Origin: Candidatus Melainabacteria bacterium 17Bon1m | GTDB lineage: Bacteria; Cyanobacteriota; Vampirovibrionia; Obscuribacterales; Obscuribacteraceae | NCBI GenBank assembly: GCA_032128875.1 | Contig: JAVLKG010000010.1 | Location: 160,996-224,995, forward strand | DNA: 64,000 nt | Direction of reading: 5' to 3' | Shown here: piece by piece, positions 2,650 through 50,884 of the stretch | How positions within the stretch are numbered: position 1 is the stretch's first letter | How the letters are laid out: each line of letters opens with the position of its first letter | Program-made: the position numbers and the translations under genes | The notes under the pieces: model-generated | What the model saw: the letters and a program-made list of their open reading frames with translations, nothing else | The model's database searches: none | Told to the model about the DNA's origin: nothing

Positions 2650-5600
2650 TTGGAAATCCTTATCTGTCAAACTTGCGGGCTGTTGTTGCGCGGCGAGATT
2701 AAAAGCTGCCAGTCGTGCGGAACTCCTGCGTCAAAATACTCTGCCACTGCATTGCCTATTATGTCTAACACGTCAGCTCCATTGGCAGTGGCAGTGGATC
2801 CAGACCCGCTTGTTTTGGAAAGAGTCGTCACAGCCCGCCGCCTTGGTACTTATAAACTGAAAGAAGCCAATGGTTACGGCAATGGACATAATGGCGAAAA
2901 CGGGCACGGCAACGGAAATGGCAATGGTAACGGCAACGGCGATCACACGGGCAATGGACACAACGGAGAAAACGGCGGCTCCGTAGCTCCCGCTTCAATG
3001 AATCCTTCCAGCTCTCAGACAGGACTTGCAGCTCTCAGCCTGGGCTTTATGAGTGGCAGAAAGACTCAACCTACAGGTCCGTTATTTGCTGACAATCCAT
3101 GGGGTGAAGCAGAAACAGCTGCCCCGCCAACCACACCCGACCCGGCTAGCGCTGGTGTTCCTCCTGCGATCAGTTCTGGTCAGTTCGATCCGATTAGCCA
3201 AGCTAATCAAAGTGCGCCGGTGCAAGATCCAACAGGTTCCGCACCAGCAGCGCTTCCTAGCGATCCAGCGCAAGGAACATCGCCTTGGCTTACCCCAGCA
3301 TCGCAAACTCCATTTTCGCCGAATTTAGATCCATTTTCGTCCGGTGCGCAAGCAGCACAAAACATGTTCCTTGGCACTCCCGATGCCGGTCAAGATACAA
3401 CACAATTTGGCGGCCTCGCACCGGCACCAACACCACTAGGTTTCGATCCAATGTCTCCCATGGGAGGTTTTGATCCAACTTCGCCTGTGGGAGGTGTCGC
3501 GCCAACCTCTGCTAATGGAGGCTTCGATCCAATGTCTCCCATGGGAGGTTTTGATCCGGCCGCCCCCGTGACCTCGATACCTGAAGCGGCACCGCAGATG
3601 ATGCCTGCACCACTGTCAGACAAACCGGTTGATCCATTCGCATTTGACAGCCAGAGCTCGTCTTCCCCTGCAGGAAATGGTTTCTTCGATCCGCCGCAGT
3701 CAGCAATGAACCCGGATTTGGTAGAAGGTCCTGCCGGGCTCAACAGCGACGTATCGTCAGCATATGCCGTTGCTCCGGTGGCGCACGATCCAGGCTTTGA
3801 CATAGTGACACCTATTCAGGCAGTACCTGTTGGCACCACGTCCGGTGACAACACCACTGCTATTGGAACAGCCTTGCAGCCAGTCGCAGAAGCTGCTCCA
3901 GGGAATGCAGAGTCAGGAGGCGATCCGGTAGCAGGCGCGCCTCAAGCCGACAGCCAAGGCGGTTTTGGAGCTGGACAAACAGCAGCAATCGCAGCCGCCG
4001 CAGCTATTGCCGGAGCTGCTGCAGGTGCCGCCGTCACCAACGCAATCCACAACCGAGCAGCTAATACGGTCGGAGGCGATTTCTTCGACACAGGCGCACC
4101 AGCCACTCGCAACGATGACAATGCATCGGTGGGTTCAACTTCGACAACATCTGCAGATCCAATAGGTAGTTCGAGTTCCATGGATCCGGCAGATTCAGTT
4201 GGCGAAGAAGCAGCATTCGACCCGTTTGCACCTGCTGCATCAAAACCGGCGACCGGTTTTCCAACCGGTCCTGCTGACGATTTTTTCAGCGCTGCTCCCA
4301 TTGGTAGACCAAAACGCGACGACGGCAGCGTAGACGATAACAATGATTCAGCTGATGCTTTCAACTTCGATTCCGGAAGAAAAACGCGAAATGACGACAA
4401 TGGTTTTCCGGACGAAAGTAAAAATCGCGGCAGAAGAGATGAGTCATCTAAGATAGGCGACTCTGATGATGGTCGTCCAAAAATCGCTCGTCCACGCGGT
4501 TTTGCACCAAACAAAGACAACAAAGATGCCAGCAAATCACAAGAGAAAGAAGATAAAACTGAGAAGGCCGACAAGGCCGAAAACCAAGATGATGATTTCT
4601 TCGCCGGAAGAAAGAACAAGAAAAATTCCGATGATGACCTAGATGATGAAGATTCTAAAAAGGAAACACCACCACCCAGAAAATCTTTTTCGGGCGGCTC
4701 TTCAACTATAAAAAGACCTGGCGCGAAGAAAAGAGAAGTCGTCAAAGAGAAATCGAAAAAGGGCAAAAACAAGGACGAAGACAACGACGATCTCGATGAC
4801 GATGAGAATCTGCCGTTCTTGGAGCGCGAAATTAGCCTCGGCGGCATGACTGTCAGCAACAAGTCGGCAATAATCCTTGGCACCATATGCGCCTTCATGA
4901 CAGTGGTCGTGTTCAACACTTTCTGCACATTCTGCACATACCTTGCCGGCTCAATGCCCAAGAATGGCGCCGCTCAGGGTGGATTGCTGGGCGGTCTGGG
5001 TGGACAAAAAGCCGTAGACATCTCCGGCATTTACAACGTCTACTACAAGACGCCGATGGAGAAGAACGGCAACTCCTTTAAAATGCAGCTCGGTCAACAA
5101 GGAACTCAAATCTACGGACGCGGTGAAGATGTCGGTGGCCCCTGGATTTTGCAGGGCAACCTAGTGGCGCCGAATGGCATCGTCTTTAGAAAGTTCTATT
5201 TGAGAGACGGCAAACCTTTCGGCAAAGGGATCGAATATAAAGGTATGGTTGGCGTCACTGAAATAGGCCGCCCATACATGCAAGGTCAGCTTGCCTACGA
5301 AACCAAAATGGGTAAATTCTGGCGAGCGACAATTGCGCAAGTCACAGGCAATTGGAGAGCTGTTCAAACAGTGTCAGGCGCGGTCTTGGCAAATAGCGGA
5401 CAGGCACCACCGCCAATGCCAACCGTTGCTAGCTCACCAATGAGTCCGATGGGCGGAATGGGTGGCGGAAACAATCCGCTTGCCCTGTTGCAACCGAACG
5501 ACACGCACAATCGCGGCGACATGTCGGCATTCTTCCTCAAGGTTGCATTCGGGTTAATCGGTATTGGTGTGTTGCTTGCGATGGGCGCGTTGTTCATCTT

Positions 5601-7122: not shown

Positions 7123-7332
7123 TAAGCTTTCGTGTCGAGCGCCTGGAGCATCTTGAAAGCGCCAGTACTTCCTATAAGTACTAAATTTCGACCTTTCAGG
7201 GCATGAATCAAATAAGCGGAAATCTGTCTTCGCGGCTCTTTCAGCCGTAGAAAGGCTACTTAAATGAGTATAATCAGGGTCAGCAGCTTTGCCGCTCTGA
7301 CTGATAAGTAAGGGAAACCCAGGACAAGCATC

Positions 7333-10524: not shown

Positions 10525-11080
10525 CGAAAAGAATCAAAGAGACTTCACGCCACCGCCATCGTCGGGAACACCCCCGGCGCAACAAGACCCTCAAGGTGTT
10601 CAGGCCAATCAGGCACTTCCTCCCGATCAACTTCCATTAGTCGATGAACTAGGCATCGTGGATGTTGATGATCCGCTTGCCGGCGGGCGTGGCCGACTCT
10701 TTTCTGCTGCCGGTCGTTTTTCACCACTCATTGAATTCACTGACAAGCATGTAATTATGCATCCTCCGCAGTTACCGTTTTCAGAAGATGGTCCGGCAGA
10801 AGAAATTGTCATGAAAGTCGATGAACGCGGCGTTTTGCTCGACGAGCTAGGTGTCGCAAAACACGTTGCCGGCGCGAGATTCAATGGTGAAGTACTTTGG
10901 TATCTCGGTGAACAATTGCCTGGCACAACGAAGTACTTGGTGTGCTGGTTCGACAAACAAGGCAAAGCGCACAAACTCTATGTCAATGAAGAACCGCTTA
11001 CCGTCGACGTTGTATTCAGACTGAGAAACAAGACTCACGACGGCGAGCTTTCATTTTTCGCAGATGTGACGACGGACTAA
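10517..11080 (+). CDS. Hypothetical protein, probably translationally coupled to the upstream ATPase
   Basis: 187-aa ORF whose start overlaps the ATPase stop by 8 bp (ATGCCTGA). Confidence 0.75.
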   Translation: MPDEKNQRDFTPPPSSGTPPAQQDPQGVQANQALPPDQLPLVDELGIVDVDDPLAGGRGRLFSAAGRFSPLIEFTDKHVIMHPPQLPFSEDGPAEEIVMKVDERGVLLDELGVAKHVAGARFNGEVLWYLGEQLPGTTKYLVCWFDKQGKAHKLYVNEEPLTVDVVFRLRNKTHDGELSFFADVTTD

Positions 11081-11087
11081 AGCGTCG

Positions 11088-11106
11088 GGGTGCGTTGCAC
11101 GCGCCC
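11088..11106. repeat. REP-like palindrome GGGTGCGTTGCACGCGCCC
   Basis: GC-rich imperfect palindrome between convergent genes; same family as the element at 32793-32855. Confidence 0.5.
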
Positions 11107-11183
11107 ATTTTGCAGGGTTGACTCCACGCGCCGACCGTTTCTACTTATGCAGTCGACTCATGGCGTCGACCCTAACATTAATC

Positions 11184-14100
11184 CTAAGCAGTTAAGCGCT
11201 TACCAGCGAGGAACTTACGGCAGTACTCTTGCCAGTTGGATTGCAAGTCGTTGTGAATAAGCTCTTGTGCAGCCGATGCAGGCAGATCGATTGGCATTGT
11301 TCTTTGCTTGCCGTCGGATGCAAACTCGTGGCGAACTGAAGTGTTTTCGTTGATCTCGTACGAGAGAATCGGAATCCAAACTTCTCCAGTCAGTACTTCA
11401 AGTTGAGTACGGATGCTGTTGCCGTCCGGCGATGTCGATTCGACAACGCGGCAATTCTCGCCGAGTTTTTCAATCAAGCTATTGAGGATTGTCTCTTCAA
11501 CCCACTTACGTTCAACAGGATCAAGATTTTCAGAAAGTACGTTGAACGAGTTGGCTTTGCCGCCCGTGACGACAGTATTATCGTCATCACCACCGTCCAG
11601 TGAAATGGTGGACGCTTCACTGACATCTTCCTGAACAATACGAGGAACAGGCACAGCAGATGTAATGGTTGCCGTCTTCGTTGAGGCAGCAATGAGTGGT
11701 TGGTTCACAACTTCAACATCAACTTCTTTACCGATTCCATTGAACGAATATGTGCAACCGGGGCAACTGCTTGCTTCGGTTGTGGTCAGGCGATGGCATT
11801 GCGGGCACTGACGGCTGGCGGTTTCGAACTTGGAAGAACTCCAGCTTGTGATGCTTTCGCCTCTCATGCGATCGCGGTATTGGGCAATTTCTTCAGTCGT
11901 CGGCAGGACGATTTGTGTACCGCGTCGCAATGCAGCGGTCGGAACGCCCTTATGGTCCGTCGTCGTCGGCAAGCCGTTCTTCTCTGCCAGCAATTTCCAG
12001 AGAGTGACATCACCCAATTGCGGGTGCTTCATGGCGACGGAGCGCAGCGTATCACCCAGTCTGACGTTGTACTTCTGACTTGCGGTGTCGACAGCGTTGC
12101 CGATCTTGCCCAGCAATTTCTCAACATTGGCTCTGCGCTGATCGGCAGCAGCCTTGGCGTCGATAGAAACAACATTCTCGCCGGACGAATCTTGCGCAGT
12201 GAAGAGTTCCAATCGTTGTTGTTGACGGAATTCCCTGATTTGTCGGGGGCTCGGCAGAGTAAGGACGATGCCTTCTTTGACGACGTAAACTTTCTTGCCG
12301 TTGACCATCTTGATCTCGATCTTGTCCTTGTTGATTTGATAAATCAAATCGGCAAGTTTTGGATCGCGCAGACGCTTGGCTGCAATCGACTCGATGGTAT
12401 CGTTCGGGCGCACCAGGTATTTGGTTTGCTTGTTGTCCTGACGAACCTGTTCTTCTTTCTTCTGTTGTTCGGCCCAGAACGCATCCTGACGCGCCTTGGT
12501 GATAGCGTCGTTTTCGCGACGGTTTGCAAGCGCAGTAAGCATCGTGTCTGTGAGCTTTTTCGAATTCTCTTCGTCTTTCTCTTTCTTCTCGCGCTCGGCT
12601 TCATCGCGTTGCTTGTAGCCCTCCATCTCTTTCTCTTTGAGATCGGCAATGAGCTCGGCGTGGCGCCTGTAAGTATCGTCTTCGCGTTCTTTCGATTCGC
12701 GAATGTCTTCCGCGATATCGGCATACTTGCGATCTTCGGCTTGAACAGCTTCTTTGTAGTCGGTTTGACGTTCATCAGAGAGATGCTGGATGAGCGCATT
12801 AATAGCCGACTGCGTTTCCTGAGCCATTGCGATCGCTTCGGCATGGGAAACTTGGCTATTTTGATCGTTCTCGAAGCCTCGACCTTTCAGCCCCTCTGCA
12901 CCGTCGTAATGAACGACATCTTGGTGCTCTCTGACGCGATTTTCGTAATCGCTAAGCAGGCTGCCTGAACTGTCCTTCGGATCTTCCTTCTCGTCAATGA
13001 TGATCGGCTTGGGCTCAGCCTTCGGTTCAGCGTGTTCGGGGCGCATCGGCTCGAAATTGACATCGAGTTTGTTGGCGATGTCTTCCGGCTCTTCTTGCTT
13101 TTGCGCAGCAATCGGATTTTGCTGCGGCTGTTGTTGATGTGTTTGTTGAACAGGATTGAGCGGATCGCTTCCTGCCGCAGGAGCCGGTGCGGAAGGCGTG
13201 CTCGAAGTCGGCGCAACTGGCTCGAACGGCAAAGGAGGTGTCGGCTGCGGAGTGAAGTTGCCCGGAGCGTTCGGGTTCGGAACACTCGGGACATATGGAT
13301 CGTTAATCGGAGTGTTCGGATATCCGCCCGGGTTCAGTGGATCGCCATAGTTCACAGGAGGCTGCGTAGGCGTTCCATAATTAGGCACCGTGCCGACATA
13401 AGGGTCGGTCATAGGTGGCGTGATTGGCGGCGTTATAGGCACCTGTGTTCCACTATAGATCTGTCCACTATCGACAGGCGGAACGAAAGCCGGCGTGCTG
13501 CTATTGCCACCATATACGAGGCGAGAACCGTCGTCATTGTAAATGACGTTGGTACCGTCGGGAGTGACAGTCCTTACAATCTGGCCAATCGGGTCATACC
13601 AATGCTCTGCACCATAGGGGTCGACATAAGAACCGCTGTTAGTCGGGACAATGCCAGTGTTTGTCTGCTGTGGTGGCTGGTATTCAGGCGTGTAAGGATT
13701 CGGCTGAACCACCGGCACAGAGGTGGTGGGGGTTCCGCCACCAAAATCAATTCGTACAGGACCAAGACCAACGTGTACAGTCGGATCGCCGGTGTAAGGG
13801 TTGATGCCGATGCCTACATTAACGTCGCCGTTGCCGATATTGATCGGGTATTGCGGTTGTTGCGTTTGTTGTGAACCATCGTAATTGGTCGGATACTGCA
13901 CTCCAGTGGCGGGTACAGTTGTGAATGGGTCCGTCGTTGATGGTGCTTGCCCAGACTGCGTCTGAGTGGGCTGCTGTTGGGTACCTCCATTGGTCCCTGC
14001 GGCTGGTTGAACCTCCACAGTGCCAGTGCTTTGTGCCGGTGGCAGCAGATGTCCGTCGAGATCGGTCCACAGAACACTACCATTACCAGATGGCACGTTG

Positions 14101-17100
14101 GTAGCTGGTGTGCCGTCCGGATTGACGTAAGTGATTCTCGTGTTGCCACTAGAAGCTTGAGCTGCGGTCTCTGGATCAGCCATTATGACTGTAGTTCCGC
14201 CTTGCGGTGGCGTGTAGCCGGCAGGCACAACAAACTGGATTTCAAAGTCGCCGGCCGGAGTTTTGACACCAGCACCAAGACGAATTACAAGAGTTGAATC
14301 GGATGTTCCTTGCGGTGCACTACCAAGTTCAATTCTGAACGTGCCACCAGCTTGCGAACCGCTGCCAGAGCCGACGTTGAGTACAGGCGAGTCGCCAGGA
14401 TTAAATGTATAAGTTGGCTTTCCTGTCGTATCCGCAGCTACGGACCAAGTGCTTCCGCCGGATTTGGTGCCCGAATCAACAGGCAACGCGATAGGCGGTT
14501 TTACCTGAGAAGGATCGTAGACGAAACCATCGTTGGTTTGAGTGTATGTCTTGCCCGCTTCACCAGGAGCATATGTCGTGACGGAGATGACCTTGCCGGT
14601 CTGCGGATCATTGACAGTGCTGACCAACATACCAGTCTTCGTGTTGAACGCGATTGTTGTGACAACCCCGCCATTATTGTCTGTGGCAGTGGCGACAATT
14701 GTGCCGCTCTTGTCTGTCGTGACGGAATAGGTCGGTTGAGATGCGGAACTACTCGAACCCGCTGATACAGGTGCAGTCGTAACAACTTTGATGTTCGGAT
14801 CGTTTGTTGGCGTTTGAACCTTCGACGGCTCTGATGTTGTTGGTTTTGTATTAGTAGGATCAGCCGTGCCAGTGCTTGCCTGTTTGGGAGCATTCGGATC
14901 AGCGCTAGCTGCCGCAGGCAATTGCTTAACTCCGGTCGGATCTGCAGTGGTGCTTGTGTTTTGTTTTTGCTCTTGAGTGCCACTAGAAGTGGTGCCGGCA
15001 GCAGGCTTACCTGACGGATCGCTGGTGACGGCTCCCGTGCCTGCAACAACCTTGCTTGGGTCGATAGAGACCGAAACACCCGTCTTCGGATCGGTGATAG
15101 TAACGGCGCCAGTCTTCGGATCCGCGGTGACAACAGGACCGGTCTTCGGATCTGTGGCAACGGGCGTACCAGTCTTCGGATCGGTCGCAACTGGAGAGCC
15201 AGTCTTCGGATCTTGAACTACGCTTCCAGTGTTGGAAGTTCCGCTTGCGGTGGTCGACTTGGCGGGATCTGTAGCTGTTGGTGTTGTCGAAGTCGTCGTT
15301 GTCGGCGACTTGGGATCGATGGAAGTGGTAGTCGTCGACGTTGTAGTAGTTGTCTTCGACGGGTCTTGAGAAACTGGCGAGCTTGTTTTCGGATCGGTTG
15401 CGATCGGTGCACCGGTCTTCGGATCCGTTGCGACTGGGGAGCCAGTCTTCGGATCTGTAGCGACTGGAGAACCAGTTTTCGGATCAGTAGATATGGAACC
15501 AGTTGTGGTGCTCTTCGCGGGGTCTGCGGAAACTGGAGTGCCAGTCTTCGGATCGGTTGCGATTGGTGCACCGGTTTTAGGATCCGTTGCGACTGGAGAG
15601 CCAGTTTTCGGATCGGTGGAAACATTGCCAGGTGTAGTGCTCTTCGCAGGATCAGCGGAAACTGGAGTGCCAGTCTTCGGATCGGTTGCAATCGGTGCAC
15701 CGGTCTTTGGATCTGTCGCGACTGGAGTTCCAGTCTTCGGATCGTTCGCAACTGGTTGACCCGTCTTCGGATCTGTCGCAACAGGAGTTGTGCTCTTCGC
15801 TGGGTCAGCGGTGGTGGGCGTTCCCGTCTTCGGATCGGTCGCGACTGGTGTTCCAGTTTTTGGATCTGTAGCAACTGGTTGTCCAGTCTTCGGATCAGTA
15901 GCGACTGGTGTAGCGTTCTTCGCCGGATCTGTTGCAACCGGCTGACCCGTCTTCGGATCGGTCGCGACTGGTGTTCCAGTTTTTGGATCTGTAGCAACTG
16001 GTTGTCCAGTCTTCGGATCGGTCGCGACTGGAGTAGCGCTCTTCGCTGGATCTGTTGCAACCGGCTGACCAGTCTTCGGATCGGTCGCAACTGGAGTTCC
16101 AGTTTTTGGATCTGTAGCAACTGGTTGTCCAGTCTTCGGATCGGTCGCAACTGGAGTTCCAGTTTTCGGATCTGTTGCAACCGGCTGACCCGTCTTCGGA
16201 TCGGTAGCCACAACTGCACCAGTCTTCGGATCCGTAGCAACAGGAGCGCCAGTCTTAGGATCTGTTGCCGCTGGAACAGAGCTCTTCGCAGGATCGGCAT
16301 TGGTTGTTGTACCGGTCTTCGGATCTGTGGTCACCGGAGCGCCAGTCTTCGGATCTGTCGCGACAACTGCACCAGTCTTCGGATCTGTAGTTACGGCCGT
16401 CCCAGTCTTAGGATCGGTCGCGGTGGCAGTACCAGCCTTCGGATCAGTCGTTACCGCCGCCCCAGTCTTAGGATCTGCTGTGGTGGCAGTACCAGCCTTC
16501 GGGTCTGTTGAAACGACGGCCCCAGTTTTAGGATCAACATGCGTCGTAGCGCTCTTAGGATCAACAGTAGTTGTTGTTCCAGCAGGTGCAGTGCCCTTAG
16601 CCAAGTCAACATTAGAGGTGGTGCCAGCCTTCGGATCGACATTGGTACCGGCGGTAGCAGTACCGCCCTTCGGATCGACATTGGTGCCGGCAGAGGCAGT
16701 AGCCTTAGGATCAGCACTCGTTCCAGTATTTGTGCCGGCCTTCGGATCAACGTTGGTTCCGGCATTTGGGCCAGCCTTCGGATCAACGGTGGTTCCAGCA
16801 TTTGCTCCAGCCTTCGGATCAACGGCTGTTCCGGCATTTGCACCGGACTTCGGATCAGCGGCAGTACCTGTATTAGTGCCGTTACCAGTAGTGCCACCAG
16901 TGAGTATCTTCGAAGGATCGATTGCGACAACACTGCCTGTTCCAGTGCCTGTTTTCAAAGGATCTTGAGTATTACCTGTGGTAGGCGGAACAACGATTTG
17001 CCCACCCTGTTTAATGACTTCAGTATTAACCGGCACTGACGGATCAGTACGCAGTCCAAGCTGTGCAGCTTTGTCTGGAGGGAGCATCAACGCAAGCTCA

Positions 17101-23147: not shown

Positions 23148-23183
23148 TCGCCAGTGAACGTCCGGTGAAGTGGAGAATCTGGA

Positions 23184-23282
23184 TTACTTGGTAAGGGACT
23201 CGTGATAGCCTGGAAGTGGCTCAATGCTGACTTCTGCAACCGCCGCCGGGCTGATGAGGTCCTTTTGGCTGCGCGTTGTCAA
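23184..23282 (-). CDS. Possible 32-aa upstream ORF, in frame with the giant gene
   Basis: AGGAG SD at 23292-23288, then TTG at 23282. Encodes MTTRSQKDLISPAAVAEVSIEPLPGYHESLTK*; the stop lies 36 nt before ATG 23147. Confidence 0.3.
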   Translation of the reverse strand: MTTRSQKDLISPAAVAEVSIEPLPGYHESLTK

Positions 23283-23409
23283 TGGTACTCCTATGCAGTA
23301 ATTATTACTGTCGTCTAATTTACATTTGCACCAAAAACACCGTCTTCCAACGCCAAATCAGGCATCGAAAGTGCTTAAATTTTGCTAATATGAAAAATGA
23401 TTAAACCGA

Positions 23410-26400
23410 TTAATCGATTGGTTTACCTAGAAATCGACTGCAATAACCCTTCCAATTGGAATTCAGGTCATTGACGGCAAGTTCACGCGCCGCTTGAGGC
23501 GGCAAATCGATTCGTACCGAGCGTTTGCGCCCATCCTGAGTGAACTCATTGCGCATGGATACATCATCATAAATTTCATACGAAACAACCGGCTCCCAGC
23601 CGTTTCCTCGGGATACTTCCAGTTGGCAAACGACACCCTGCCCATCGCACTTAACAATGCGGCATTCGTCATTTAGCTGGTCCATGGTGTGATTGCCTGT
23701 CGTGAATCGAGTCGGCGCATCCTCGTCGGCAACAGGTGGCTGTACGAAGACTGTTTTCGCATCTTCGAGCGAGGTGCTTACACCGCCTGATTGCGCGTGA
23801 TGAGCTTGAACGGGTTGCGCTTGAACCGGTTGCGCTTGAACCGGCTGTGCTTGCTGCAACCGCACGGTATCTTGGTACGAACGATCTTGAGCCACTTCAC
23901 GCGCAGCGGGTCGCACATTAGTGTCACCGCCTTCGCCGCCATCCCCACCGCAAACAGGTGCAAAAGCCGCCCCACAAGCGGGACAAATTGTTGCGCTGTT
24001 AACGGTCATACGACCACAGCCTTCGCATAGCTTGGTAGCAACTTCAGTTACTACCCCAGCAGTTCTGACACCACCAGTAGTGAGCACCGCATTTGGTGCA
24101 CCAGCCAACTGAGCACGGTAGCCTTCCACATCAACATTGCTAGGTATCATGAGAATCGCACCGCGAGTCAAGGTTGCAACTGGAGCCCCCTTGCTATCGG
24201 TCTCTGTGGATATTCCGTTTACCTCTGCAAGCAGCTTCCAGAGATTGACGTCTTGCAATGCCGGGTGCTTCATCGCGACAGATTTGAGGCTGTCGCCCAG
24301 TCTAGCTATATACTTGATCCTGCCGTCAGCAGGCTTTGCCCGGCCTATCGGCCCCAGCAAGCTTTCGATATTGGCTCTCTTCTTCTGCGCGGCTTCCATA
24401 GCTGATGCCGCCAGGGCCGCAGTCACTTCCGCCGATGTCGCTGGTTGAGAGCCAGGAACGGTTGCAGGTCCACCAGTTAGTCCGGGTACGACTGTCGCAG
24501 CTCCGCCGGTTGCAGGTGCACCGGTCGCGGGTCCGCCTGATCCTGTCTTGTTGCCTGACCAACCTGCGCCAAAGCGGGCAATAAGCTCTTCGTCGGCAGT
24601 CATTTTCTTGTCCGGCGTACCAGATGCTCTGGCGCCCGCCACACCGCCTTTCCTGAACTCTTCAATTTCAGTGGTCGACGGCAACCAGATAATCATCTTC
24701 GGCTTGAGATCCGGCACTTGTTTGCCGTTCTCGACACGCAGCAGGATGACTTCTTTGTTGATCTCGTAAATGAGCGGAGAAAGTTTGACATCGCGCAACT
24801 GAGTTGTGGCAATGCTTTGCAGAGTATCCTTTTCGCGCACGATGTAGCGACGGCGTTTTTCCCTGTCGCGCTGTTTGTCCTTCTCGTCTGACTTTTCCTT
24901 TTCCTTCTGCTCCTGCTCCAATTGCTTGCGTTTCTTCTCCGCCAGCGCAGCGAGCATAAGAGCATCGAGACGAGCCTTTTCTTCGCGCTTATGTTGGTCT
25001 TCCTTCTCGCGCTTCTCTTTCTCTTCTTCTTCCTTTTTCTCGCGCTTGGCTTTCTCGTCGAGGAATTTCTCGTCTTTTCTATCTAAGGGATTGAGAGCAT
25101 CCGGGCGATCAGATTTTGCCTCAACTGTCTTGGAGCCAGGCAATGCGATGTCCTGTTGTCTCTGCGCTTGGATGGCATCAGGCTTGGCGATATTTGCTTC
25201 GGGCTTGCCTTCAGCTTTGACCAGGTCCGGTTTGACTTCAGGGCGATTAGAAATATCCATGCGTGCAGCGTTTTGCGCGGCCGCTTGAGCGGCATCCATG
25301 CGCGCCTGCGGTCCTTCAAAACGAGCGCCAGGACCAATTTCACGCCCAGCTTGCTGACCCTCCTGACCAGTTGGTCTGGTCGCCTGCTGAACGGGATCTT
25401 TTCCGGCTCTGAGATCGAGCATCTGACGAATCGCCATCTCTTGTGCCGGGGTGATTCTTGCCACCAGCGCCATTGCGTCTGCTCTCTCGTTCATCTGACG
25501 ATTGATGCCGTTTTGCTCCATTGCTGCAAGGCGTTCGCCTGGACGAGTAGGGTCGAGCTTTCTACCAAGAATGTCTTCGATCCTGAGTGCATTCTTGGAG
25601 CCGTCTACACCAAGCTGTTTATTGACGTCGCCCAGCATTTTGGTCAGGTCACTGAGCAAGCGCTGAGTATCTTTCGCGCTCAAAGTTTGATTGTTGATCG
25701 CATCCTTACTTCCCTTCATGAAGTCGTACAGGCGCTCCGTCGGGTTTTTCATACCATCGGACAAGCCCATCAGCTCTTTGACTCGAGCAGGATTGAACTT
25801 GCCGTCAGTCGAGCCCTCCGTCAAGAATTTGGTCAGGCGATCTGCTTTAGAAGGATCAAGGCCTTTAAAGATATCTTCTACTCTTTGGCCTTTAGTCATC
25901 TCGAGGCGCTTCATCGCGTCGGAAAGAAACTCGCGTGTCGCCTTGTCATTCATGTCAAAACCAGGAATTCCTTTCTGGTTCTGTCCACCTTTTATTGCAT
26001 CGAGAGCGCGACTGGCTTGGTCGCCACCATCCTGACGCCCACGCATAGTGAGGTCACCGCCTCTGCCATCTTTATCGCGCGCCTCGGCCCATTTCTGTTG
26101 AAATTGAGCCAGCATTTCGGGATTGTTTTTGAATTTGTTTTCCCAGTTAGGTGGAAACGGCTGATCTTTGGGTTGACCCTTGAGCTCTTGAAGTTTTGCC
26201 CATTCAGCCTGGCGTTGGCCAATATCGAATCCGGGACGCGCTTCACCAGACTTGAGCCCAGGGGGATTGAATTGTTCGCTGCGCTCAACCATTCCTTTTA
26301 TAAAGTCTGGGTTGTTGCGCGGATTGCGATCTCCACCTTCAATTGGATTGTGACGCGGATTGCGATCGCCACCATCTATTGGATTGCCGCCCGGCAATTT

Positions 26401-27570
26401 GACGTCCGCTACTTTGACGTCGGCTGGTTTGAAATCGGGGCCTTTGATATCGCGCACCTGCTCCGGCTTTGGAGTAAAGCGCGCTTGCAATTGCTCAGGA
26501 TTGAAAGTCCCGTTATTTTCTCGCAATGCCAGCTTGGTCGAATTTGCGACCAGGCTTGCGCCTTCCGGGAACGCGCTTTGCAGTCCCCGTGCGGCTTCCT
26601 GGCGAACCTTCGGGTCAACGCCTTTTGCCAACGAATCAGCGTATGTTTGAGCTGCTTGTCTCTGGTTTTCAGTCCACTGAGCTACAGGCGGAACAACAGC
26701 TTCATTGCGGCGGCCGGGAACTGTATCGCGATCCTTACCTGTTCTTGGATCCGTAAGTGCGGCTGGTTGATCAGTCACGGCAGCAACCTTGCGCTCTGGA
26801 ACTGCCGCAACAACAGGTCGTTCTCCGCCAGAAGTCGTTTGAACCGGTGCTTCGAGTCCGTTTGCTTTTCGCTGTTCTCTCCAGAAACTGTCTCTCTGAT
26901 TTGCCGGCAACGCAGCAGCCTGTTCTGCGAGTTGTCTATATTGCTGCTGACCGACTTTCTCTCGCAGCTCATTCCTCTCAGAACCAGTGACACGCTTATC
27001 CGGCTGAATCGTTGGTTCGCCTTCAGTACGCTGACGCTTATTGCCTGGTTGAGGATCTGCAGAGCCGTCCGTGACAGTGCGTCGATTGGTAACACCTGCA
27101 GGTTGATCGACCACGGGATCTGCCGTTCTGCGCCCATTTGTCGAAGTCGGATTATCGACGGTAGCACCGCGTGGCGTAGCCAAATTTACTTCCGGAGGCC
27201 GCACACCATCTTTCGGTATACCAACCAGTCGAGGCGCCTCACCCTCACGACGCGGAGGGTCGATTCGATACTGTTGACCGTCTGTGGTAAAACCGAAAAC
27301 CTGGTTACCCTTTACTACAGTATTGAGCTTGAGCTGCGTTCCGTCAGCCTGAGTGAAAGTCTTTTCAGTCACCTGTCCGGGCGCACGGTCGTTAAGTTGA
27401 ATAGTCTTCGGTCGCTCGTCGAGTTGAGCACGAAACTGATCATGAGCCTCAAGAGGCTGCCCACCAGGAGCATCACCACCGGGATTTTGCTCGATTGGAG
27501 TTGTAGGCTTGACCAGCGTATCGACTTTTTCTTCGGCAGGTTGAGTCGTCTGGCGTGGCAACTGATTCAT
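23410..27570 (-). CDS. 1386-aa protein: low-complexity N-terminus, charged coiled coil, LysM-LysM-Zn ribbon-conserved terminal domain
   Basis: LysM motifs YIVREKDTLQSIA and YIARLGDSLKSVA, followed by CEGC...CPAC. C-terminus is homologous to those of both neighbours. AAGGGG SD. Confidence 0.9.
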   Translation of the reverse strand: MNQLPRQTTQPAEEKVDTLVKPTTPIEQNPGGDAPGGQPLEAHDQFRAQLDERPKTIQLNDRAPGQVTEKTFTQADGTQLKLNTVVKGNQVFGFTTDGQQYRIDPPRREGEAPRLVGIPKDGVRPPEVNLATPRGATVDNPTSTNGRRTADPVVDQPAGVTNRRTVTDGSADPQPGNKRQRTEGEPTIQPDKRVTGSERNELREKVGQQQYRQLAEQAAALPANQRDSFWREQRKANGLEAPVQTTSGGERPVVAAVPERKVAAVTDQPAALTDPRTGKDRDTVPGRRNEAVVPPVAQWTENQRQAAQTYADSLAKGVDPKVRQEAARGLQSAFPEGASLVANSTKLALRENNGTFNPEQLQARFTPKPEQVRDIKGPDFKPADVKVADVKLPGGNPIDGGDRNPRHNPIEGGDRNPRNNPDFIKGMVERSEQFNPPGLKSGEARPGFDIGQRQAEWAKLQELKGQPKDQPFPPNWENKFKNNPEMLAQFQQKWAEARDKDGRGGDLTMRGRQDGGDQASRALDAIKGGQNQKGIPGFDMNDKATREFLSDAMKRLEMTKGQRVEDIFKGLDPSKADRLTKFLTEGSTDGKFNPARVKELMGLSDGMKNPTERLYDFMKGSKDAINNQTLSAKDTQRLLSDLTKMLGDVNKQLGVDGSKNALRIEDILGRKLDPTRPGERLAAMEQNGINRQMNERADAMALVARITPAQEMAIRQMLDLRAGKDPVQQATRPTGQEGQQAGREIGPGARFEGPQARMDAAQAAAQNAARMDISNRPEVKPDLVKAEGKPEANIAKPDAIQAQRQQDIALPGSKTVEAKSDRPDALNPLDRKDEKFLDEKAKREKKEEEEKEKREKEDQHKREEKARLDALMLAALAEKKRKQLEQEQKEKEKSDEKDKQRDREKRRRYIVREKDTLQSIATTQLRDVKLSPLIYEINKEVILLRVENGKQVPDLKPKMIIWLPSTTEIEEFRKGGVAGARASGTPDKKMTADEELIARFGAGWSGNKTGSGGPATGAPATGGAATVVPGLTGGPATVPGSQPATSAEVTAALAASAMEAAQKKRANIESLLGPIGRAKPADGRIKYIARLGDSLKSVAMKHPALQDVNLWKLLAEVNGISTETDSKGAPVATLTRGAILMIPSNVDVEGYRAQLAGAPNAVLTTGGVRTAGVVTEVATKLCEGCGRMTVNSATICPACGAAFAPVCGGDGGEGGDTNVRPAAREVAQDRSYQDTVRLQQAQPVQAQPVQAQPVQAHHAQSGGVSTSLEDAKTVFVQPPVADEDAPTRFTTGNHTMDQLNDECRIVKCDGQGVVCQLEVSRGNGWEPVVSYEIYDDVSMRNEFTQDGRKRSVRIDLPPQAARELAVNDLNSNWKGYCSRFLGKPID

Positions 27571-27930
27571 TCAGCTTCCCCTTGGCGGAAATGATAAGGA
27601 GGTCTTGGACTCCATCCCTTTGGCTTATATGACTAGCTTAGTAAGTTGGCCTGCGGACGCGTCCGGCAAAAGGCCGGGCGCCTTAATAATAAGTCTGCCT
27701 ATTTGGGTTGTCAACAATTCGACACACCCGCCACATTTAATCTTTGCCGGTGTCTAGGGTCGATGCTGTCAAGGATAGATATCAACAAGGCTGGTTCGAT
27801 TTTCTAGGCAAGCAATGCACCCAATGAATTTTATGCTCATTGTTGTCGGCTTTTCATCCGACGTTATTGCTCGTTTTCATAACTAGAACCAAAAGACGTT
27901 ACTCCAACACCCAGGAAAACGGCAATTAGT

Positions 27931-30900
27931 ATGGATTCTGTCCTTTCAAGCAACACAAATGAGCAAGTAGTCGGCAAAAACGGCCAAGGCTCTCCTGAAA
28001 ATCCAGATAAAGAACACGATGGTGACTTCGACGAAAGTCATCAGCGTTTGCTCTTTGGAGGAACGAGCGCGCCCGCTGGCGATGCGCAAAATGAAAGTAC
28101 AATTGCCGCAGCACCCAAACCAGGGCAACCAGTATCGCGCGCACGCGAAAGCACAGACGATCTCAATCTTGTTGCAATTTCCGGAATTACAGCAAACGGA
28201 AAAGCAGACGTCAAACCTATTACGCCTACATACGAAGTCAGCCCTTCCAATCCCTTACCGGCCCTGGCAAAGACTGGTGTTGCCACCACTGTCAGTTTGC
28301 AAACACCAACCACTGATAATGCTGTTCCATCCGGACGCCGCTCGGGCGCCACAGACAAAATTGCCGTTCAACTTACTGAAGATGCGACTCCAAAACCAAT
28401 TATTTCTCAGGAAATCAGACTGGACCAATTGGATAAGGATACAAAACACAGAGTTGTCGCCGCCAGCGTCAACAGCTTGTTCGAGCGGCTTGGACAGCCG
28501 GTTCCGACGGGACAAGGCGACGACAATGCAAGACCGATCGTATCTCCTGCCACCGCTTCCAGAAAGGCAAATGGTAGCGGCGACGCTCAAGTGTTCAGCT
28601 CAAATTCTCCAGCAACAATTGCGTCCGGACAAGCAGAAGCAAGGCTGCCAATCAATCAACCAGTCAGTTCAACCAAAGCCGCTCTGGATAGTTTAATACC
28701 AGCAAAACCAGCCGTAGAAGTGAAAGAAATAAACGCACCGGCGAGTCGTATCACTACTGATGTACGCGCGACCGGCAATGTAATTCAATCACCATTGTCA
28801 GAACCGATTAGCACCACCGCCGGTGCGCGAGTAAAATCCATCGCAGAACCAACAGGTGACAATTGTCCCGTACTGCCAAGGGTAATTGGTAGGCAAATTG
28901 TCGAAAACACAGGTACTCAGCTCCCTCCAGGAACTATTGCCGGAGACCTGGTTGGCGTGAACAGAGCGGCCACCAGCAATCGTGCCTTGATTCCTGACCA
29001 GCCGTTAACTGCTCCTAAATATCCCACACCGGTCGAAACTTCCATCGCACGCGCCAAATCAATCGACACATATGCTGGCGTTCCAACTCCCGCCGTGCCG
29101 GATTTGACAGGACAACGTCCGGCAGGAACAACAACGCCTGAAAAACTGATTGGAGACAACAGACTTCCAGTGGTCAAACCAACAGGCGTGATTAATGAAA
29201 CTGGCGTTCTTCCCACAGTGATCAGCGGAAAAGATGGCGCTGTAATAGTACCTAGCCCAGCAGGCGAAAGAGATGTTCGTCGCAATGTGCTAAACATCTT
29301 GCCTGCCGTAACAGAACAAGTTGCCGTACAACTGGCTCCGCAAGTCAAAGCGGGTCTAAGAACCAATGCAGATGGAACACCAGTAAAAGTTGAAGGACCG
29401 TTGCCAATGCCCGTACCGGGTCCTTCCAACAAAATCGAAGCTCCGCAGACGGCACAGCCGGCCGCAAGAGTGGACATTCCGCTGCCCGGAGTAGAAATCA
29501 AAGTTGTCGGCTCGACAGTGACGATTACTGGTCCAAAATCGGAAGTCCAGCCTATTTTGCAAAATCCAGCGACTGCAAAACCTGAAGTCACAGGAAGAGT
29601 TCAGGACGGGATCAAACCAGCGTCTCCCCTCGAAACCGTCAACCAAACCGTTGGAACTACGGCTGCTCGCGTAATTTTGCAAAATGCCGAACAGCTCTTG
29701 CAACCAAACAACAGCTTGCCGCGCACAGAAATACCGGCCAATGTAGTGCGCAACGGAGACCAGATCAACCCGCCAAGCACGCCTGGTGCTCGCCATGGCG
29801 AACTGCCAACTGGAGTAAAGACACCAGACGGCACAGTGGTCGACAGAACAGGCAAACCAATTGAGCCCGGAGCAACTACCGACAGAACCGGCGCAAAAAT
29901 CTCCGACAATCCTAACGCTACGCCTGGCACTACCAATGGTGCAATACAAGGAACTATCCCTGGAGCCGACAGAGGCTTGCCGACTGACAAATCATTGCCA
30001 CGAGCTACTGATCCAACTATTGCAACTGACAAAGGAATTCCGAAAGCAGTTGACGGACGTCCTGGAGATGTCGCTCGCAGTGGAGAGCAAACTGTCCCTG
30101 GTGTTCGCAGTGGTGAGCAGGCTGTACCTGGTGCCCGCAATGGAGAACAAGCTGTTCCCGGTGCTCGCAACGGAGAGCAAACCGCCCCCGGTGCTCGCAA
30201 TGGAGAACAAACCGCTCCTGGCGCTCGCAACGGAGAACAAACCACACCTGGCGCTCGCAGCAGCGAATCCACTCGCACCGCTGACGGTACCGTCAAAACT
30301 TCCAGCGAAGCGATGGCTCGCAAAGATGATAGCGCTTTCAAGACAGCCGATGCTATGCCCAAGCCAGTCGAAAGCGGCATGAAGTCCGGCGAATCAAACA
30401 CCCGTGTTGTTGAATCGACATCTAAGGTTTCAGAGTCTGGCTCAAAAGTAGTAGCCGATGTACAAGTCAAAGCAAACGGAGAAGCTGTTGCCACTAACAA
30501 GCCTATCGAACTGGCAGGTAAAGTAGCCAGCGAAATCGCATCCGCTCAAAAAGTTCAGGATGGTCAAGTAAAGTCGGCAGACGTTGTATTGAAAGGCACC
30601 GATGTTGCAGGTCGCAGCATTGAAGCAAACATCAAAGCGCAAGACCTCAGTGCAAACAACGGGCAGCCGATTTTAAACGACAAAAATGTCAGACTTTCAG
30701 ATGTAATCGTCAGAGCGGCTGAGCAAGCGATTATCAAAGGCGCAGAAATCAACCAAACTGCAAAACTTGACTCTAATGTAAGAGTTTCCGAACAAAACGT
30801 TCAAAACTCGCATCTCGCACAAAACCTGCAAAATCTCCAAAACATTCAGAATGTTCAAAACGTAAATCCAGTAATTGCGAATCAACAGCAAAACAAGAAC

Positions 30901-32778
30901 GACGTTGTCCGCAACGATGCAAATGCTCCTAAAGCCACAGACCAGAATCAAATTGTTCAAAATCAACTCGGTCTTCAAAACCAGATCGCGCAAAACAACA
31001 TCGGACAAATTGGCAAATCAAACGAACAGGTCGTTGGTCATAACGTCAAAGCAACGCCTGATTGCCCAGTTCCTGGACAAAGAAATATCGATGCTAAGGT
31101 CGATCAAGTTGTCGCAGACATCCTCAATCATGTTCGCAACAACAGCAATGTGAGAAGCGATCAGCATGCCGGAGCAAAAGCGCTCAACTCGTTGGATCAG
31201 CCTAACAACGCCGGCAATCAGCAGATCGATCCTAGAGTTCTACTCGATGCGGCTGCCGTGCGTCGAATTTTGGATGGACAGGGTATTACACTCAGTCCAA
31301 CAGCACTCAATACAATCATGGAGGGAATCCAGCCGACAGGTGATCATGCAGCTGACTATGCGCTGCCGAGCATCGGGTCGCTCAACCTCAGCCAAATTAT
31401 CAGCTTGGGTGAGCGTTTACAGGAAGCAGTAGCGGGCGCAGGAAGTGAAACTTCAGAACCGCAACCGAAACCCCAGCTTCAACAACACAGAACAAAATAC
31501 CTCGTCAAAGAAGGAGACACACTCGAATCAATCGCGCAAGAAAAACTCGGCGATGCGCGACTTGTCCAACTGCTTATTACCATCAACCGCGCTCTAGTCA
31601 ACTACAGACTGGAAGATGAGAAGAAAGTTGCATACGTTGTGCCGAATCAGTATATGTGGTTGCCGACGGACCACGAACTGGATGTTCACAAAAAGAACTT
31701 CTTCGGCAAGCACGGAAAAGATGGCTCGATTGCAATTGCTATCAATTCCAAGCAAAACACACCTATCATTCCGCCAGTCAGCTTCGACCACACTAAAGAA
31801 GTTTCAGCCGAAGTCTCTGCCAGCATGCAAGATTTCCGTCCAGCTTCCAGCCCTTCCAATCCGCTTTCAGGCAATCGCATGTCTGCGGGCTACGAAGTGA
31901 AGAAGGTTGTGCCGAAGGCGGGCTCGGAAGGCGGTTCTAGTAGTGGTTCTATTAGTGGTTCCAACCGTGGCTTCAACAGTGTTTCCACTAATGGTTCCAA
32001 TAGTGGTCCAATCAGCCAATCCGGCGGCGCAAAGATGGCAGGCAATCTTGACAGACTGCGCCATGCGGGGGACAGAAAGAGCATAAATCTCGACGAAATC
32101 GAATATGTATCGACTCAAGTGAGCCACCGCCAATGCTACCAAGTACGTGAAGGCGAATCATTGATGTCGATTGCCGCTTCTCTCGAGTCGATGGGACACA
32201 TCAGCATGTGGAAGCTGCTGGCAAAAATCAACGGTTTCCAATTCGAAGAAGGTGGTCTCGGCAAGGCGATCGACTTGCATGTTGGTCAATTCATTGTTCT
32301 GCCGACTACGGAAGAACTCAATGAATATAAGCTTTTGGAAAAGTTGACTTCAACCTCGAAGTCGGCAGCCTCGAATGCAGGTGCAATAGAAAATGCATTC
32401 ATCTGCGTTCAGCAGCAAAAGCAAGTCCCAACACCACCGCCTCCTGCCCTCGTAGCTCTGGCACAAGGTGTCGGCGGTTTGACCACAGTGCAAAAACTTT
32501 CGAACTACACTCGTCTCGTTTTCAACGACCTTCCTCAACTGGAAAACTGCTTCAGCATCACGGTTGAAGCACGCTGGAACGGTCAGTGGAAGCCAATGGC
32601 TGCTTACGAATGCCGTCACGGGCAAACCACACGCCACCTGTACAACAAGAATGGCGAGGTCAAATCTATGGACCTCGACTTGCCACCGTACGTGGTGAAA
32701 GAGATGGCGAGAGAAGATTTTGCACGCAACTGGAATGCTTACGTGAACATCTTCATGGGAAATGTAGCAAGCGTGTAA
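27931..32778 (+). CDS. 1615-aa protein: low-complexity N-terminus, LysM-LysM-conserved terminal domain (no Zn ribbon)
   Basis: LysM motifs YLVKEGDTLESIA and YQVREGESLMSIA. Terminal ...DLPPYVVKEMAREDFARNWNAYVNIF matches the paralogs. Confidence 0.9.
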   Translation: MDSVLSSNTNEQVVGKNGQGSPENPDKEHDGDFDESHQRLLFGGTSAPAGDAQNESTIAAAPKPGQPVSRARESTDDLNLVAISGITANGKADVKPITPTYEVSPSNPLPALAKTGVATTVSLQTPTTDNAVPSGRRSGATDKIAVQLTEDATPKPIISQEIRLDQLDKDTKHRVVAASVNSLFERLGQPVPTGQGDDNARPIVSPATASRKANGSGDAQVFSSNSPATIASGQAEARLPINQPVSSTKAALDSLIPAKPAVEVKEINAPASRITTDVRATGNVIQSPLSEPISTTAGARVKSIAEPTGDNCPVLPRVIGRQIVENTGTQLPPGTIAGDLVGVNRAATSNRALIPDQPLTAPKYPTPVETSIARAKSIDTYAGVPTPAVPDLTGQRPAGTTTPEKLIGDNRLPVVKPTGVINETGVLPTVISGKDGAVIVPSPAGERDVRRNVLNILPAVTEQVAVQLAPQVKAGLRTNADGTPVKVEGPLPMPVPGPSNKIEAPQTAQPAARVDIPLPGVEIKVVGSTVTITGPKSEVQPILQNPATAKPEVTGRVQDGIKPASPLETVNQTVGTTAARVILQNAEQLLQPNNSLPRTEIPANVVRNGDQINPPSTPGARHGELPTGVKTPDGTVVDRTGKPIEPGATTDRTGAKISDNPNATPGTTNGAIQGTIPGADRGLPTDKSLPRATDPTIATDKGIPKAVDGRPGDVARSGEQTVPGVRSGEQAVPGARNGEQAVPGARNGEQTAPGARNGEQTAPGARNGEQTTPGARSSESTRTADGTVKTSSEAMARKDDSAFKTADAMPKPVESGMKSGESNTRVVESTSKVSESGSKVVADVQVKANGEAVATNKPIELAGKVASEIASAQKVQDGQVKSADVVLKGTDVAGRSIEANIKAQDLSANNGQPILNDKNVRLSDVIVRAAEQAIIKGAEINQTAKLDSNVRVSEQNVQNSHLAQNLQNLQNIQNVQNVNPVIANQQQNKNDVVRNDANAPKATDQNQIVQNQLGLQNQIAQNNIGQIGKSNEQVVGHNVKATPDCPVPGQRNIDAKVDQVVADILNHVRNNSNVRSDQHAGAKALNSLDQPNNAGNQQIDPRVLLDAAAVRRILDGQGITLSPTALNTIMEGIQPTGDHAADYALPSIGSLNLSQIISLGERLQEAVAGAGSETSEPQPKPQLQQHRTKYLVKEGDTLESIAQEKLGDARLVQLLITINRALVNYRLEDEKKVAYVVPNQYMWLPTDHELDVHKKNFFGKHGKDGSIAIAINSKQNTPIIPPVSFDHTKEVSAEVSASMQDFRPASSPSNPLSGNRMSAGYEVKKVVPKAGSEGGSSSGSISGSNRGFNSVSTNGSNSGPISQSGGAKMAGNLDRLRHAGDRKSINLDEIEYVSTQVSHRQCYQVREGESLMSIAASLESMGHISMWKLLAKINGFQFEEGGLGKAIDLHVGQFIVLPTTEELNEYKLLEKLTSTSKSAASNAGAIENAFICVQQQKQVPTPPPPALVALAQGVGGLTTVQKLSNYTRLVFNDLPQLENCFSITVEARWNGQWKPMAAYECRHGQTTRHLYNKNGEVKSMDLDLPPYVVKEMAREDFARNWNAYVNIFMGNVASV
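30073..30252 (+). repeat. Coding 30-bp tandem repeat x6 (ARNGEQTAPG-like)
   Basis: Six near-identical units, e.g. GCTCGCAATGGAGAACAAACCGCTCCTGGC. Confidence 0.9.
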
Positions 32779-32792
32779 ATCGGCGGCGTGAA

Positions 32793-50847: not shown

Positions 50848-50884
50848 CTTCGGTATACAGCGAGTTATCCACTCCTGCCCAACT

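Follow-up and report, generated by a model that had tools for sequence, protein, structure and literature searches.

The 64,000-nt stretch of Candidatus Melainabacteria bacterium 17Bon1m analyzed here (contig JAVLKG010000010.1, positions 160,996 to 224,995; hereafter the window) carries a chromosomal locus in which genes for a type IV coupling protein (T4CP)-family ATPase, a HerA-like ATPase and a protein of 187 amino acids (aa) lie beside three genes for giant proteins, all of which end in a domain resembling DUF7718 (PF24839). From the sequence, we propose with a probability of about 0.45 that the locus encodes an envelope translocation (protein-export) system specific to the order Obscuribacterales. 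Whatever its role, it is quite probable that the locus proteins work as a single system with the proteins that bear DUF7718. The two motors are members of known superfamilies, and no publication on the locus was found among literature listings and the openings of abstracts. The map of open reading frames (ORFs; Table 1) confirmed the arrangement given in the initial annotation of this DNA, namely a co-oriented unit of T4CP-like, HerA-like and overlapping 187-aa genes that abuts three giants.

We examined the distribution of these components in 101 genomes of the order, including the source genome (G000, 93% complete; other G-numbers denote the genomes compared); 39 of the 101 were of high quality. 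The HerA-like protein was present in 94 genomes (38 of the high-quality ones), the T4CP ATPase domain in 92 (38) and the 187-aa protein in 81 (34). The terminal domain of the giants was detected in 88 genomes (34) with the Pfam model and in 99 (38) with a profile built from 13 copies. In a sample of 151 genomes of the class, the terminal domain (32 genomes) and the T4CP domain (31 genomes, G000 included) were found only within the order, with no match to either in the 118 genomes representing nine other families. At the level of the phylum, 7 of 301 genomes encoded the HerA-like protein, namely G000 and six cyanobacteria with identities of 34–39%. This near order-wide presence, together with the lack of matches to two components in the other families, agrees with the earlier description of the locus as lineage-specific and chromosomal.

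The genes are also linked in position. Wherever one contig holds both ATPase genes, the T4CP gene lies immediately upstream of the HerA gene, and, by a hand count of coordinates, at least 63 of the 94 HerA-positive genomes contain an ORF with the terminal domain that ends in convergent orientation no more than ~3.2 kb from the HerA gene. The predicted co-occurrence and co-localization of the ATPases and the giant-protein family were therefore borne out by both profiling and synteny. The full order, in which a gene for a 784-aa protein diverges from the T4CP–HerA–small gene unit, giants 1 and 2 are convergent to it and a third DUF7718 protein is divergent, was observed in G000 and in four of seven other genomes mapped. 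The 784-aa gene adjoins the T4CP gene in 7/7 other genomes examined, the second family of the order included. Its product has a disordered N-terminus, followed by a coiled coil and a conserved C-terminal stretch of ~70 aa; over the C-terminal ~57–75 aa, the identity was 80–84% in three genomes and 61% in a genome of the other family, and BLAST left this end unaligned in G348, G361 and G343.

Two further observations exceed what an inherited gene order would provide. First, one genus possesses a paralogue of the small gene away from the ATPases, and a terminal-domain protein adjoins this paralogue in 3 of 7 loci, twice in convergent orientation as in the window. Second, the HerA-like protein is the most conserved of its neighborhood (82–85% identity, compared with 74–79% for PHO4 and 42–71% for the other flanking genes). 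Its identity reaches 79–100% within its own family of the order and 59–62% in the other family. The HerA-like and small genes are single-copy in the source genome.

The shared terminal domain noted earlier was recovered in all three giants, and a fourth copy in the source genome ends a 325-aa frame elsewhere. The DUF7718 scores of giants 2 and 3 (Table 1) and the 21.6 bits obtained for giant 1 come from a six-frame search of the source genome, for which the gathering cut-off is 25 bits. Giant 1 scored 16–21.6 bits, under this cut-off, and whole-protein Pfam scans of the window proteins gave borderline values of 16–25 bits. Across the order, 64 of 101 genomes contained a copy over the cut-off (best 39.9 bits), which supports membership in this family; the name DUF7718 was not found in published papers. 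Each genome encodes 3–5 proteins with this domain, whose N-terminal parts are otherwise unrelated, and the giants diverge fast outside the shared end. In other genera, proteins of 340–400 aa consist of a LysM domain and the terminal domain. Because these proteins and the 325-aa frame share the same end, size is not the defining trait, and substrates of the proposed system need not be giant. The occurrence of the same extreme C-terminal domain on otherwise unrelated N-terminal parts is what would be expected of a sorting domain.

Residues R, W, Y, R, LP and W of the terminal domain are invariant. In an AlphaFold2 (AF2) model, the core of the domain (pLDDT ~94) is predicted to form a six-stranded sheet against which a long C-terminal helix packs. 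A comparison with solved structures yielded no clear relative, with no match at E ≤ 0.001 in a Foldseek search of the Protein Data Bank (PDB) and Z values of at most 6.0 with VIA. Polo-box-like and lipoprotein-carrier-like folds appeared as weak matches in the fold searches of this domain and the 187-aa protein and were not taken up.

We compared ten C-terminal modules from five genomes and found a common order of a LysM-like domain, an RRxN(I/V)E motif, a second LysM-like domain, a zinc (Zn) ribbon, a Pro/Ala-rich linker and the ~95-aa terminal domain. When the modules were scanned singly at E ≤ 0.01, DUF7718 matched 9 of 10, LysM 5 of 10 and the Zn-ribbon family UPF0547 4 of 10. Giant 1 consists of RHS/YD-like repeats, a coiled coil, 10-aa repeats of the TDPKTG type and a Pro-rich region ahead of the shared module. 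In giant 2, a disordered, charged part precedes two LysM-like domains, the Zn ribbon and the terminal domain, and in giant 3 a disordered part is followed by 10-aa GEQ..PGARN repeats, two LysM-like domains and the terminal domain, without the Zn ribbon.

With respect to LysM (PF01476, cut-off 20.9 bits), the initial annotation was upheld for giant 3 (25.1 bits) and the C-terminus of giant 1 (22.4 bits), whereas giant 2 remained under the cut-off at 16.9 bits. Orthologues of the giants scored 27.3–30.4 bits, and LysM domains in the giants are accordingly real but marginal. The YD-like repeats ascribed to one giant were corroborated: the N-terminal 1382 aa of giant 1 matched RHS_repeat with 24.8 bits (cut-off 22), its orthologues scored 257 (in another genus), 41.9 and 23.1 bits, and the NCBIfam model YD_repeat_2x gave 28.2 bits against a cut-off of 15.8. 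A Kyte–Doolittle hydropathy scan, which was used for hydrophobic segments and signal-like starts of the window proteins in place of a dedicated signal-peptide predictor, showed no transmembrane (TM)-like or signal-like hydrophobic stretch in any of the three giants, in line with the claim that they lack signal peptides. LysM domains and RHS repeats are usually extracytoplasmic. The combination of a C-terminal domain, absent signal peptides and wall-binding or RHS modules looks like export with C-terminal sorting domains.

Other LysM proteins and giants were also observed. A 245-aa LysM protein (window 38076–38813; 30.9 bits) has no signal-like start and no terminal DUF7718-like domain, and its gene is syntenic with the locus in five other genomes. 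Giants of 6341 aa (G301, L025/L026) and 4784 aa (G308, L023/L024) showed no Pfam match and have a common, different C-terminal end.

Table 1. Features of the locus, with positions in the window
Feature	Position	Strand	Remark
784-aa gene, divergent from T4CP gene	1..2144, extends to window -210	-	no Pfam family
T4CP-family ATPase gene, 1490 aa	2650-7122	+	ORF map
TM1 (residues 741-759), extracytoplasmic-type loop (760-964), TM2 (965-983) of T4CP-like protein	4870..5598	+	hydropathy
HerA/DUF87-like ATPase gene, 1063 aa	7333-10524	+	ORF map
Small gene, 187 aa	10517-11080	+	8-nt overlap with HerA stop
Giant 1, 3987 aa	11184-23147	-	convergent to small gene, 103-bp gap
DUF7718-like terminal domain of giant 1	11190..11552	-	own profile, E 5.8e-40
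Zn ribbon CPQC..CPGC of giant 1, between LysM-like 2 and terminal domain	11754..11807	-	
Two LysM-like modules of giant 1	11892..12419	-	LysM 22.4 bits on C-terminal 460 aa
30/60-nt tandem repeats (TDPKTG-type array of giant 1)	15138..16861	-	
Giant 2, 1386 aa	23410-27570	-	ORF map
DUF7718-like terminal domain of giant 2	23422..23745	-	27.8 bits, over cut-off
Giant 3, 1615 aa	27931-32778	+	ORF map
DUF7718-like terminal domain of giant 3	32407..32760	+	30.3 bits, over cut-off

The first ATPase belongs to the T4CP (TraG/VirD4/TrwB) family. It matched Pfam TrwB_AAD_bind (PF10412) with 25.2 bits (cut-off 20.5), and a TM anchor lies ahead of a P-loop with Walker A (GGSDKGKS) and Walker B (LYLDE) motifs in the translation. 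Its closest relatives outside the order carry PF10412, PF02534 and PF12696 domains, and its earlier description as a VirD4/TraD-like ATPase with two TM segments is thus retained. It is not a named conjugative equivalog, as NCBIfam models of TraD and the CD1115 VirD4-like protein gave 31.8, 21.2 and 21.1 bits against cut-offs of 250, 647 and 366. From the N-terminus, the protein is composed of a CxxC..CxxC Zn ribbon, a disordered region of ~700 aa, TM1, a loop of ~205 aa, TM2 and the ATPase. BLAST alignments between genera begin at or ahead of the TM1–TM2 loop, and a PDB sequence search with the T4CP domain returned no match. Many genomes of the order have a tandem pair of T4CP genes, and contig C4 of the source genome encodes an 871-aa paralogue with the same Zn ribbon (PF10412, 31 bits; PF02534, 30.7 bits against a cut-off of 20.1). 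Elsewhere in this genome, a 932-aa protein (G000:C9:197641-198723) has a Ser/Thr kinase domain fused to a P-loop with 24–29% identity to the T4CP ATPase; the gene for a 1164-aa protein that contains a LysM-like stretch lies 4 kb downstream.

The second ATPase comprises an N-terminal domain, an ATPase core (residues ~380–790, with GVTGGGKT and LIEEAH motifs) and a Cys-rich C-terminal domain (~800–1063). It exceeded the cut-off of DUF87 (24.9 against 23.2 bits), and a PDB sequence search returned weak matches to HerA/DUF87 proteins. HerA equivalog models gave 17–38 bits against cut-offs of 800–970, FtsK_SpoIIIE gave 16.5 bits (cut-off 24), and models of CedD (57 bits in NCBIfam) and of anti-phage HerA remained far under their cut-offs. 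Of the label 'HerA/VirB4-like' in the initial annotation, the first half is supported by the DUF87 match, whereas VirB4 has to be dropped; from its sequence, the protein is a member of a very large unnamed HerA-like family of ~1000 aa. A threshold of E ≤ 0.001 gave 5399 representative relatives and one of E ≤ 1e-30 gave 2703, mostly of 1000–1080 aa and with 30–40% identity across almost the entire length, and NCBIfam models named none of ten relatives scanned.

Starting from the observed gene content, family memberships, conserved linkage and shared phyletic range, we infer translocation, its direction, the role of the terminal domain, docking through a Zn ribbon and the final location of the cargo as follows. 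The T4CP-family protein would be anchored in the inner membrane by its TM hairpin, with Zn ribbon, disordered arm and ATPase on the cytoplasmic side, and its ring would serve as the conduit as well as the motor. Together with the 187-aa protein, whose gene is translationally coupled to its own, the soluble HerA-like ATPase would dock on the T4CP protein from the cytoplasm. This dock may be the N-terminal Zn ribbon of the T4CP protein, because other phyla pair this ATPase family with small Zn-ribbon membrane proteins, as described below. The cargo would be proteins ending in the DUF7718-like domain, a folded C-terminal domain that could act as the recognition handle. After the cargo has crossed the membrane, the adjacent LysM-like pair would fix it to peptidoglycan, and the long, repetitive, RHS-bearing N-terminal parts might then function on the outside of the cell, in contact, adhesion or attack.

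We compared the proposed system with known machineries. Like type IV secretion systems (VirD4/TraD/TrwB with a VirB4-class ATPase), the locus encodes a membrane-anchored T4CP-family ATPase with two TM segments ahead of the nucleotide-binding domain and, adjacent to it, a second ATPase of the FtsK/HerA superfamily, and substrates would be recognized by a C-terminal feature. However, the second ATPase is not VirB4; the locus lacks a relaxase and VirB6/8/9/10-type genes (no family search was made for VirB6/8/9), it is a chromosomal feature of the order and not a mobile one, and its T4CP has a Zn ribbon and a disordered arm of ~700 aa. In addition, the proposed signal would be a folded domain of ~95 aa. 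In agreement with the initial annotation, no relaxase, VirB, pilin or NurA family was found in a Pfam scan of the 18 main ORFs of the window, in which WXG100 and type I secretion proteins were not searched separately. VirB4 (PF03135) had no match in the source genome, TrbI matched under the cut-off and on other contigs only, and relaxase matches were restricted to contigs C17 and C27. NurA lies on contig C2 (1080813–1081643) and a canonical DUF87 protein of 578 aa on contig C3. The two ATPases of the locus are thus not parts of a canonical conjugation or HerA–NurA system encoded elsewhere. The NurA gene has no recognizable HerA gene beside it; an upstream ORF of 441 aa without a Pfam family overlaps it.

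These data also bear on the possibility that the locus translocates DNA in the manner of conjugation, competence or Ced machineries, with the giants as merely conserved neighbors or surface contact factors. T4CP and HerA/CedB-type ATPases pump DNA in known systems, the CedD and TraD/VirD4 models were weakly matched as given above, and two other contigs carry relaxase genes. We nevertheless consider this explanation improbable, given that VirB4 is not matched, TrbI falls short of its cut-off, the Pfam scan of the window ORFs found no relaxase in the locus, and the chromosomal core setting with a near-universal conserved presence across the order is unlike that of mobile elements. Furthermore, the link to the terminal domain persists away from the ATPases in the small-gene paralogues.

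The export reading has a second parallel in type VII secretion, in which EssC/EccC likewise combines a cytoplasmic N-terminal regulatory part, a TM hairpin and a C-terminal FtsK-superfamily ATPase, and in which substrates without signal peptides are recognized at the C-terminus. An FHA domain on the upstream partner in two sister loci adds to this likeness. In contrast, where EssC/EccC has three FtsK/SpoIIIE domains, the locus protein has a single ATPase domain, which is of the T4CP clade; FtsK_SpoIIIE was matched under its cut-off and on the HerA-like protein, and WXG100 partners were not searched as a family. Passages of one study (PMC3482391) deal with LysM in toxins and with type VII secretion ATPases, and attribute large toxin-like cargo to type VII secretion in some lineages.

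HerA–NurA and anti-phage HerA systems resemble the locus in an ATPase core that matches DUF87 and HerA models. However, the locus protein is twice as long, has extra N- and C-terminal domains, scores far under the equivalog cut-offs and has no NurA, SIR2 or DUF4297 partner at the locus. Giant repetitive proteins without signal peptides, with a conserved extreme C-terminus and an otherwise variable sequence, recall RTX adhesins of type I secretion and the C-terminal domains of type IX secretion. Unlike in those systems, the motor of the locus is neither an ABC transporter nor a type IX component, and the terminal domain is without a clear fold relative.

The 187-aa protein matched no known family in Pfam or NCBIfam scans. 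Its AF2 model has a mean pLDDT of 81, and fold searches returned nothing at E ≤ 0.001 with Foldseek and at most Z 3.8 with VIA. A complex prediction with the terminal domain gave a score of 0.00, which is evidence neither for nor against an interaction. A joint loss of the small gene and the terminal domain was considered and dropped after our own profile found the domain in lineages without a detected small gene.

We also considered a conflict system resembling polymorphic toxins, in which the terminal domain would be a toxin delivered by the RHS giants, with the 187-aa protein as its immunity or chaperone partner. RHS repeats in giant 1 and its orthologues, the position of the small gene at the 3΄ end of giant 1, and its paralogue beside terminal-domain genes in 3 of 7 loci would fit this explanation, as would small, standalone relatives of DUF7718 elsewhere, which are a lead only. 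However, polymorphic toxins have a variable C-terminal toxin tip and a co-directional immunity gene, whereas here the terminal domain is conserved across the order and its 3–5 paralogues per genome, and the small gene lies on the strand opposite to the giant and is coupled to the HerA gene. Moreover, a single small gene faces four terminal domains in the source genome, and structure searches of the terminal domain recognized no toxin fold. We therefore regard a toxin system as very unlikely.

Outside the order, the HerA-like family occurs in a different setting. With an alignment of 31 HerA-like proteins, we retrieved 80 loci, of which 21 were of the Obscuribacterales type and 59 came from elsewhere, namely Chloroflexota, Actinomycetota (many Streptomyces), Planctomycetota, Acidobacteriota, Nitrospirota, Deltaproteobacteria, cyanobacteria and archaea. 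Only loci of the Obscuribacterales type were matched by our profiles for the T4CP domain, small protein and terminal domain; the other 59 gave no match. In these 59 loci, the co-directional gene upstream of the HerA-like gene often encodes a protein of 220–330 aa, which has an N-terminal Zn ribbon in 21 loci (CxxC..CxxC within the first 120 residues) and a TM segment in 31. Pfam Zn_Ribbon_1, DZR or DUF7577 was found in 12 of 30 upstream genes scanned, and the two genes with FHA include one in which it is combined with a Zn ribbon. These Zn ribbon–HerA-like pairs resemble our locus in the ATPase itself, which is 30–40% identical over nearly its full length to members in Chloroflexota, Actinomycetota, Planctomycetota, Acidobacteriota, cyanobacteria and archaea, and in a partner that often has a TM segment and, at its N-terminus, a Zn ribbon of this kind. 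They differ from it in that the partner has no ATPase and in the lack of giants, the 187-aa gene and the terminal domain. The T4CP-like protein itself gave no BLAST match to neighbors of the HerA-like family in other phyla. The simplest reading would be that it combines a Zn-ribbon membrane partner with a T4CP ATPase behind the TM hairpin, the detectable sequence similarity being limited to the ribbon. No description of a Zn-ribbon membrane protein paired with a HerA-like ATPase was found among literature listings and the openings of abstracts.

Several observations concern individual loci of this collection. Cyanobacterial HerA-like homologues follow a gene for a SecDF P1-head protein, a pilin G/H-like protein, or ftsZ and an FKBP protein, and no T4CP is encoded in these loci (L027–L035). 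Three loci titled Drouetiella sp., Actinobacteria bacterium and Planktothrix sp. (L095, L096 and L104) carry the full Obscuribacterales-type locus; their labels or bins are probably wrong.

If export were shown, the locus would rank as a new secretion system. It would add a secretion route made of FtsK/HerA-superfamily motors and devoid of every other type IV or type VII component, and it would account for the way in which some of these bacteria's largest proteins, lacking signal peptides, come to reach the envelope. A bolder version, to which we give less credence, is that a new bacterial secretion class with a T4CP-type motor, a HerA-like ATPase and a small adaptor would handle signal-peptide-less cargo of up to ~6000 aa by DUF7718-like recognition and LysM wall anchoring. 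This class would have arisen in Obscuribacterales by the grafting of a T4CP ATPase onto the Zn-ribbon partner of a widespread HerA-like module, which may itself be a translocation device in many phyla. These non-photosynthetic cyanobacteria form an uncultured order, common in wastewater, soil and water, to whose biology the question is relevant. Whether or not export takes place, the locus gives genomic access to a very large ATPase family without a name and to its recurrent Zn-ribbon membrane partner.

A number of observations weigh against the export system proposed here. No outer-membrane or periplasm-spanning component was identified, and the cargo module contains Zn ribbons, a feature seen more often in cytoplasmic proteins. 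The LysM matches score marginally, with 5 of the 10 modules missing E 0.01. Relatives of DUF7718 elsewhere are apparently standalone proteins of ~100 aa with no known link to export (ESM Atlas, 0.78–0.81; a lead only). The largest ORF in the 59 loci of other phyla is mostly of 1000–1700 aa, and no giant is present; because these loci also lack the T4CP and the terminal domain, the HerA-like family needs no such cargo. With regard to linkage, the flanking housekeeping genes (SelA, GT9, PHO4, Usp, a DinG-like helicase and an M16 peptidase) are syntenic too, so that the gene order within one family is partly inherited and synteny is weaker evidence. Likewise, the phyletic range within the class reflects one gain event.

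Individual genomes of the order also depart from the expected pattern. G308 keeps both ATPases, and the terminal domain was not found anywhere in it. G343 has a single LysM giant of 1484 aa without the terminal domain and no small gene beside the ATPases. In the genus of G343 and G309 and in the second family, the small gene was undetected and a single terminal-domain protein is encoded elsewhere. In that second family, three tandem HerA paralogues flank the 6341-aa giant of another kind, and the terminal-domain protein is on another contig. Five cyanobacterial loci and the surroundings of the ATPases in G301, G343 and G308 gave no match to our own profiles of the small protein and the terminal domain. 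Seven genomes of the order have the terminal domain without a HerA match. Two of these, G331 and G353, represent assembly gaps, because the contig ends inside giant 1, where the same repeats break public contigs; the other five stand as exceptions. Transcription of the locus is likewise not demonstrated by four runs filed as RNA-Seq, because their contigs are long (up to 137–156 kb, including one of 41.5 kb that spans the stretch at window 12800–32790) and their depth is flat (~22). These runs behave as DNA libraries.

Some of these points would be accommodated by a machine at the cytoplasmic membrane face, in which the giants are internal disordered scaffolds tethered to the ATPases by the terminal domain. 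The ATPases would then assemble, remodel or segregate something, as in envelope growth, division, the chromosome or a condensate, and the LysM-like ligand would not be mature peptidoglycan. That the HerA-like protein is so highly conserved suggests a core role in the cell, cargo and motor alike contain Zn ribbons together with extended stretches that are disordered, charged or coiled-coil, and a homologue follows ftsZ in one cyanobacterium. The missing outer-membrane part and the widespread sister loci without giants point in the same direction. However, cytoplasmic LysM domains and RHS repeats are rare, members of the T4CP family are known to move substrates across a membrane, and in two other scanned cyanobacterial loci the upstream gene carries a periplasmic-type domain (SecDF P1 head or pilin G/H). 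On balance, we consider such a cytoplasmic role unlikely.

Several minor features of the window were recorded. The public contigs break within the TDPKTG-type repeats of giant 1, ending at 15432 and restarting at 16176. A promoter and terminator scan of the convergent gap between the small gene and giant 1 revealed one weak terminator-like site, no better than those in shuffled sequences. Farther downstream, where the G+C content is lower (0.43–0.47 beyond ~46 kb), positions 46275–53062 are likely to be a defence islet, which contains ORFs of 370 aa (without a family) and 1159 aa as well as a KAP NTPase. The larger of these two ORFs matched the PADLOC PDC-M68A and HNH-type effector models at its N-terminus (E 6.8e-23), and the KAP NTPase matched PifA (E 4.5e-68).

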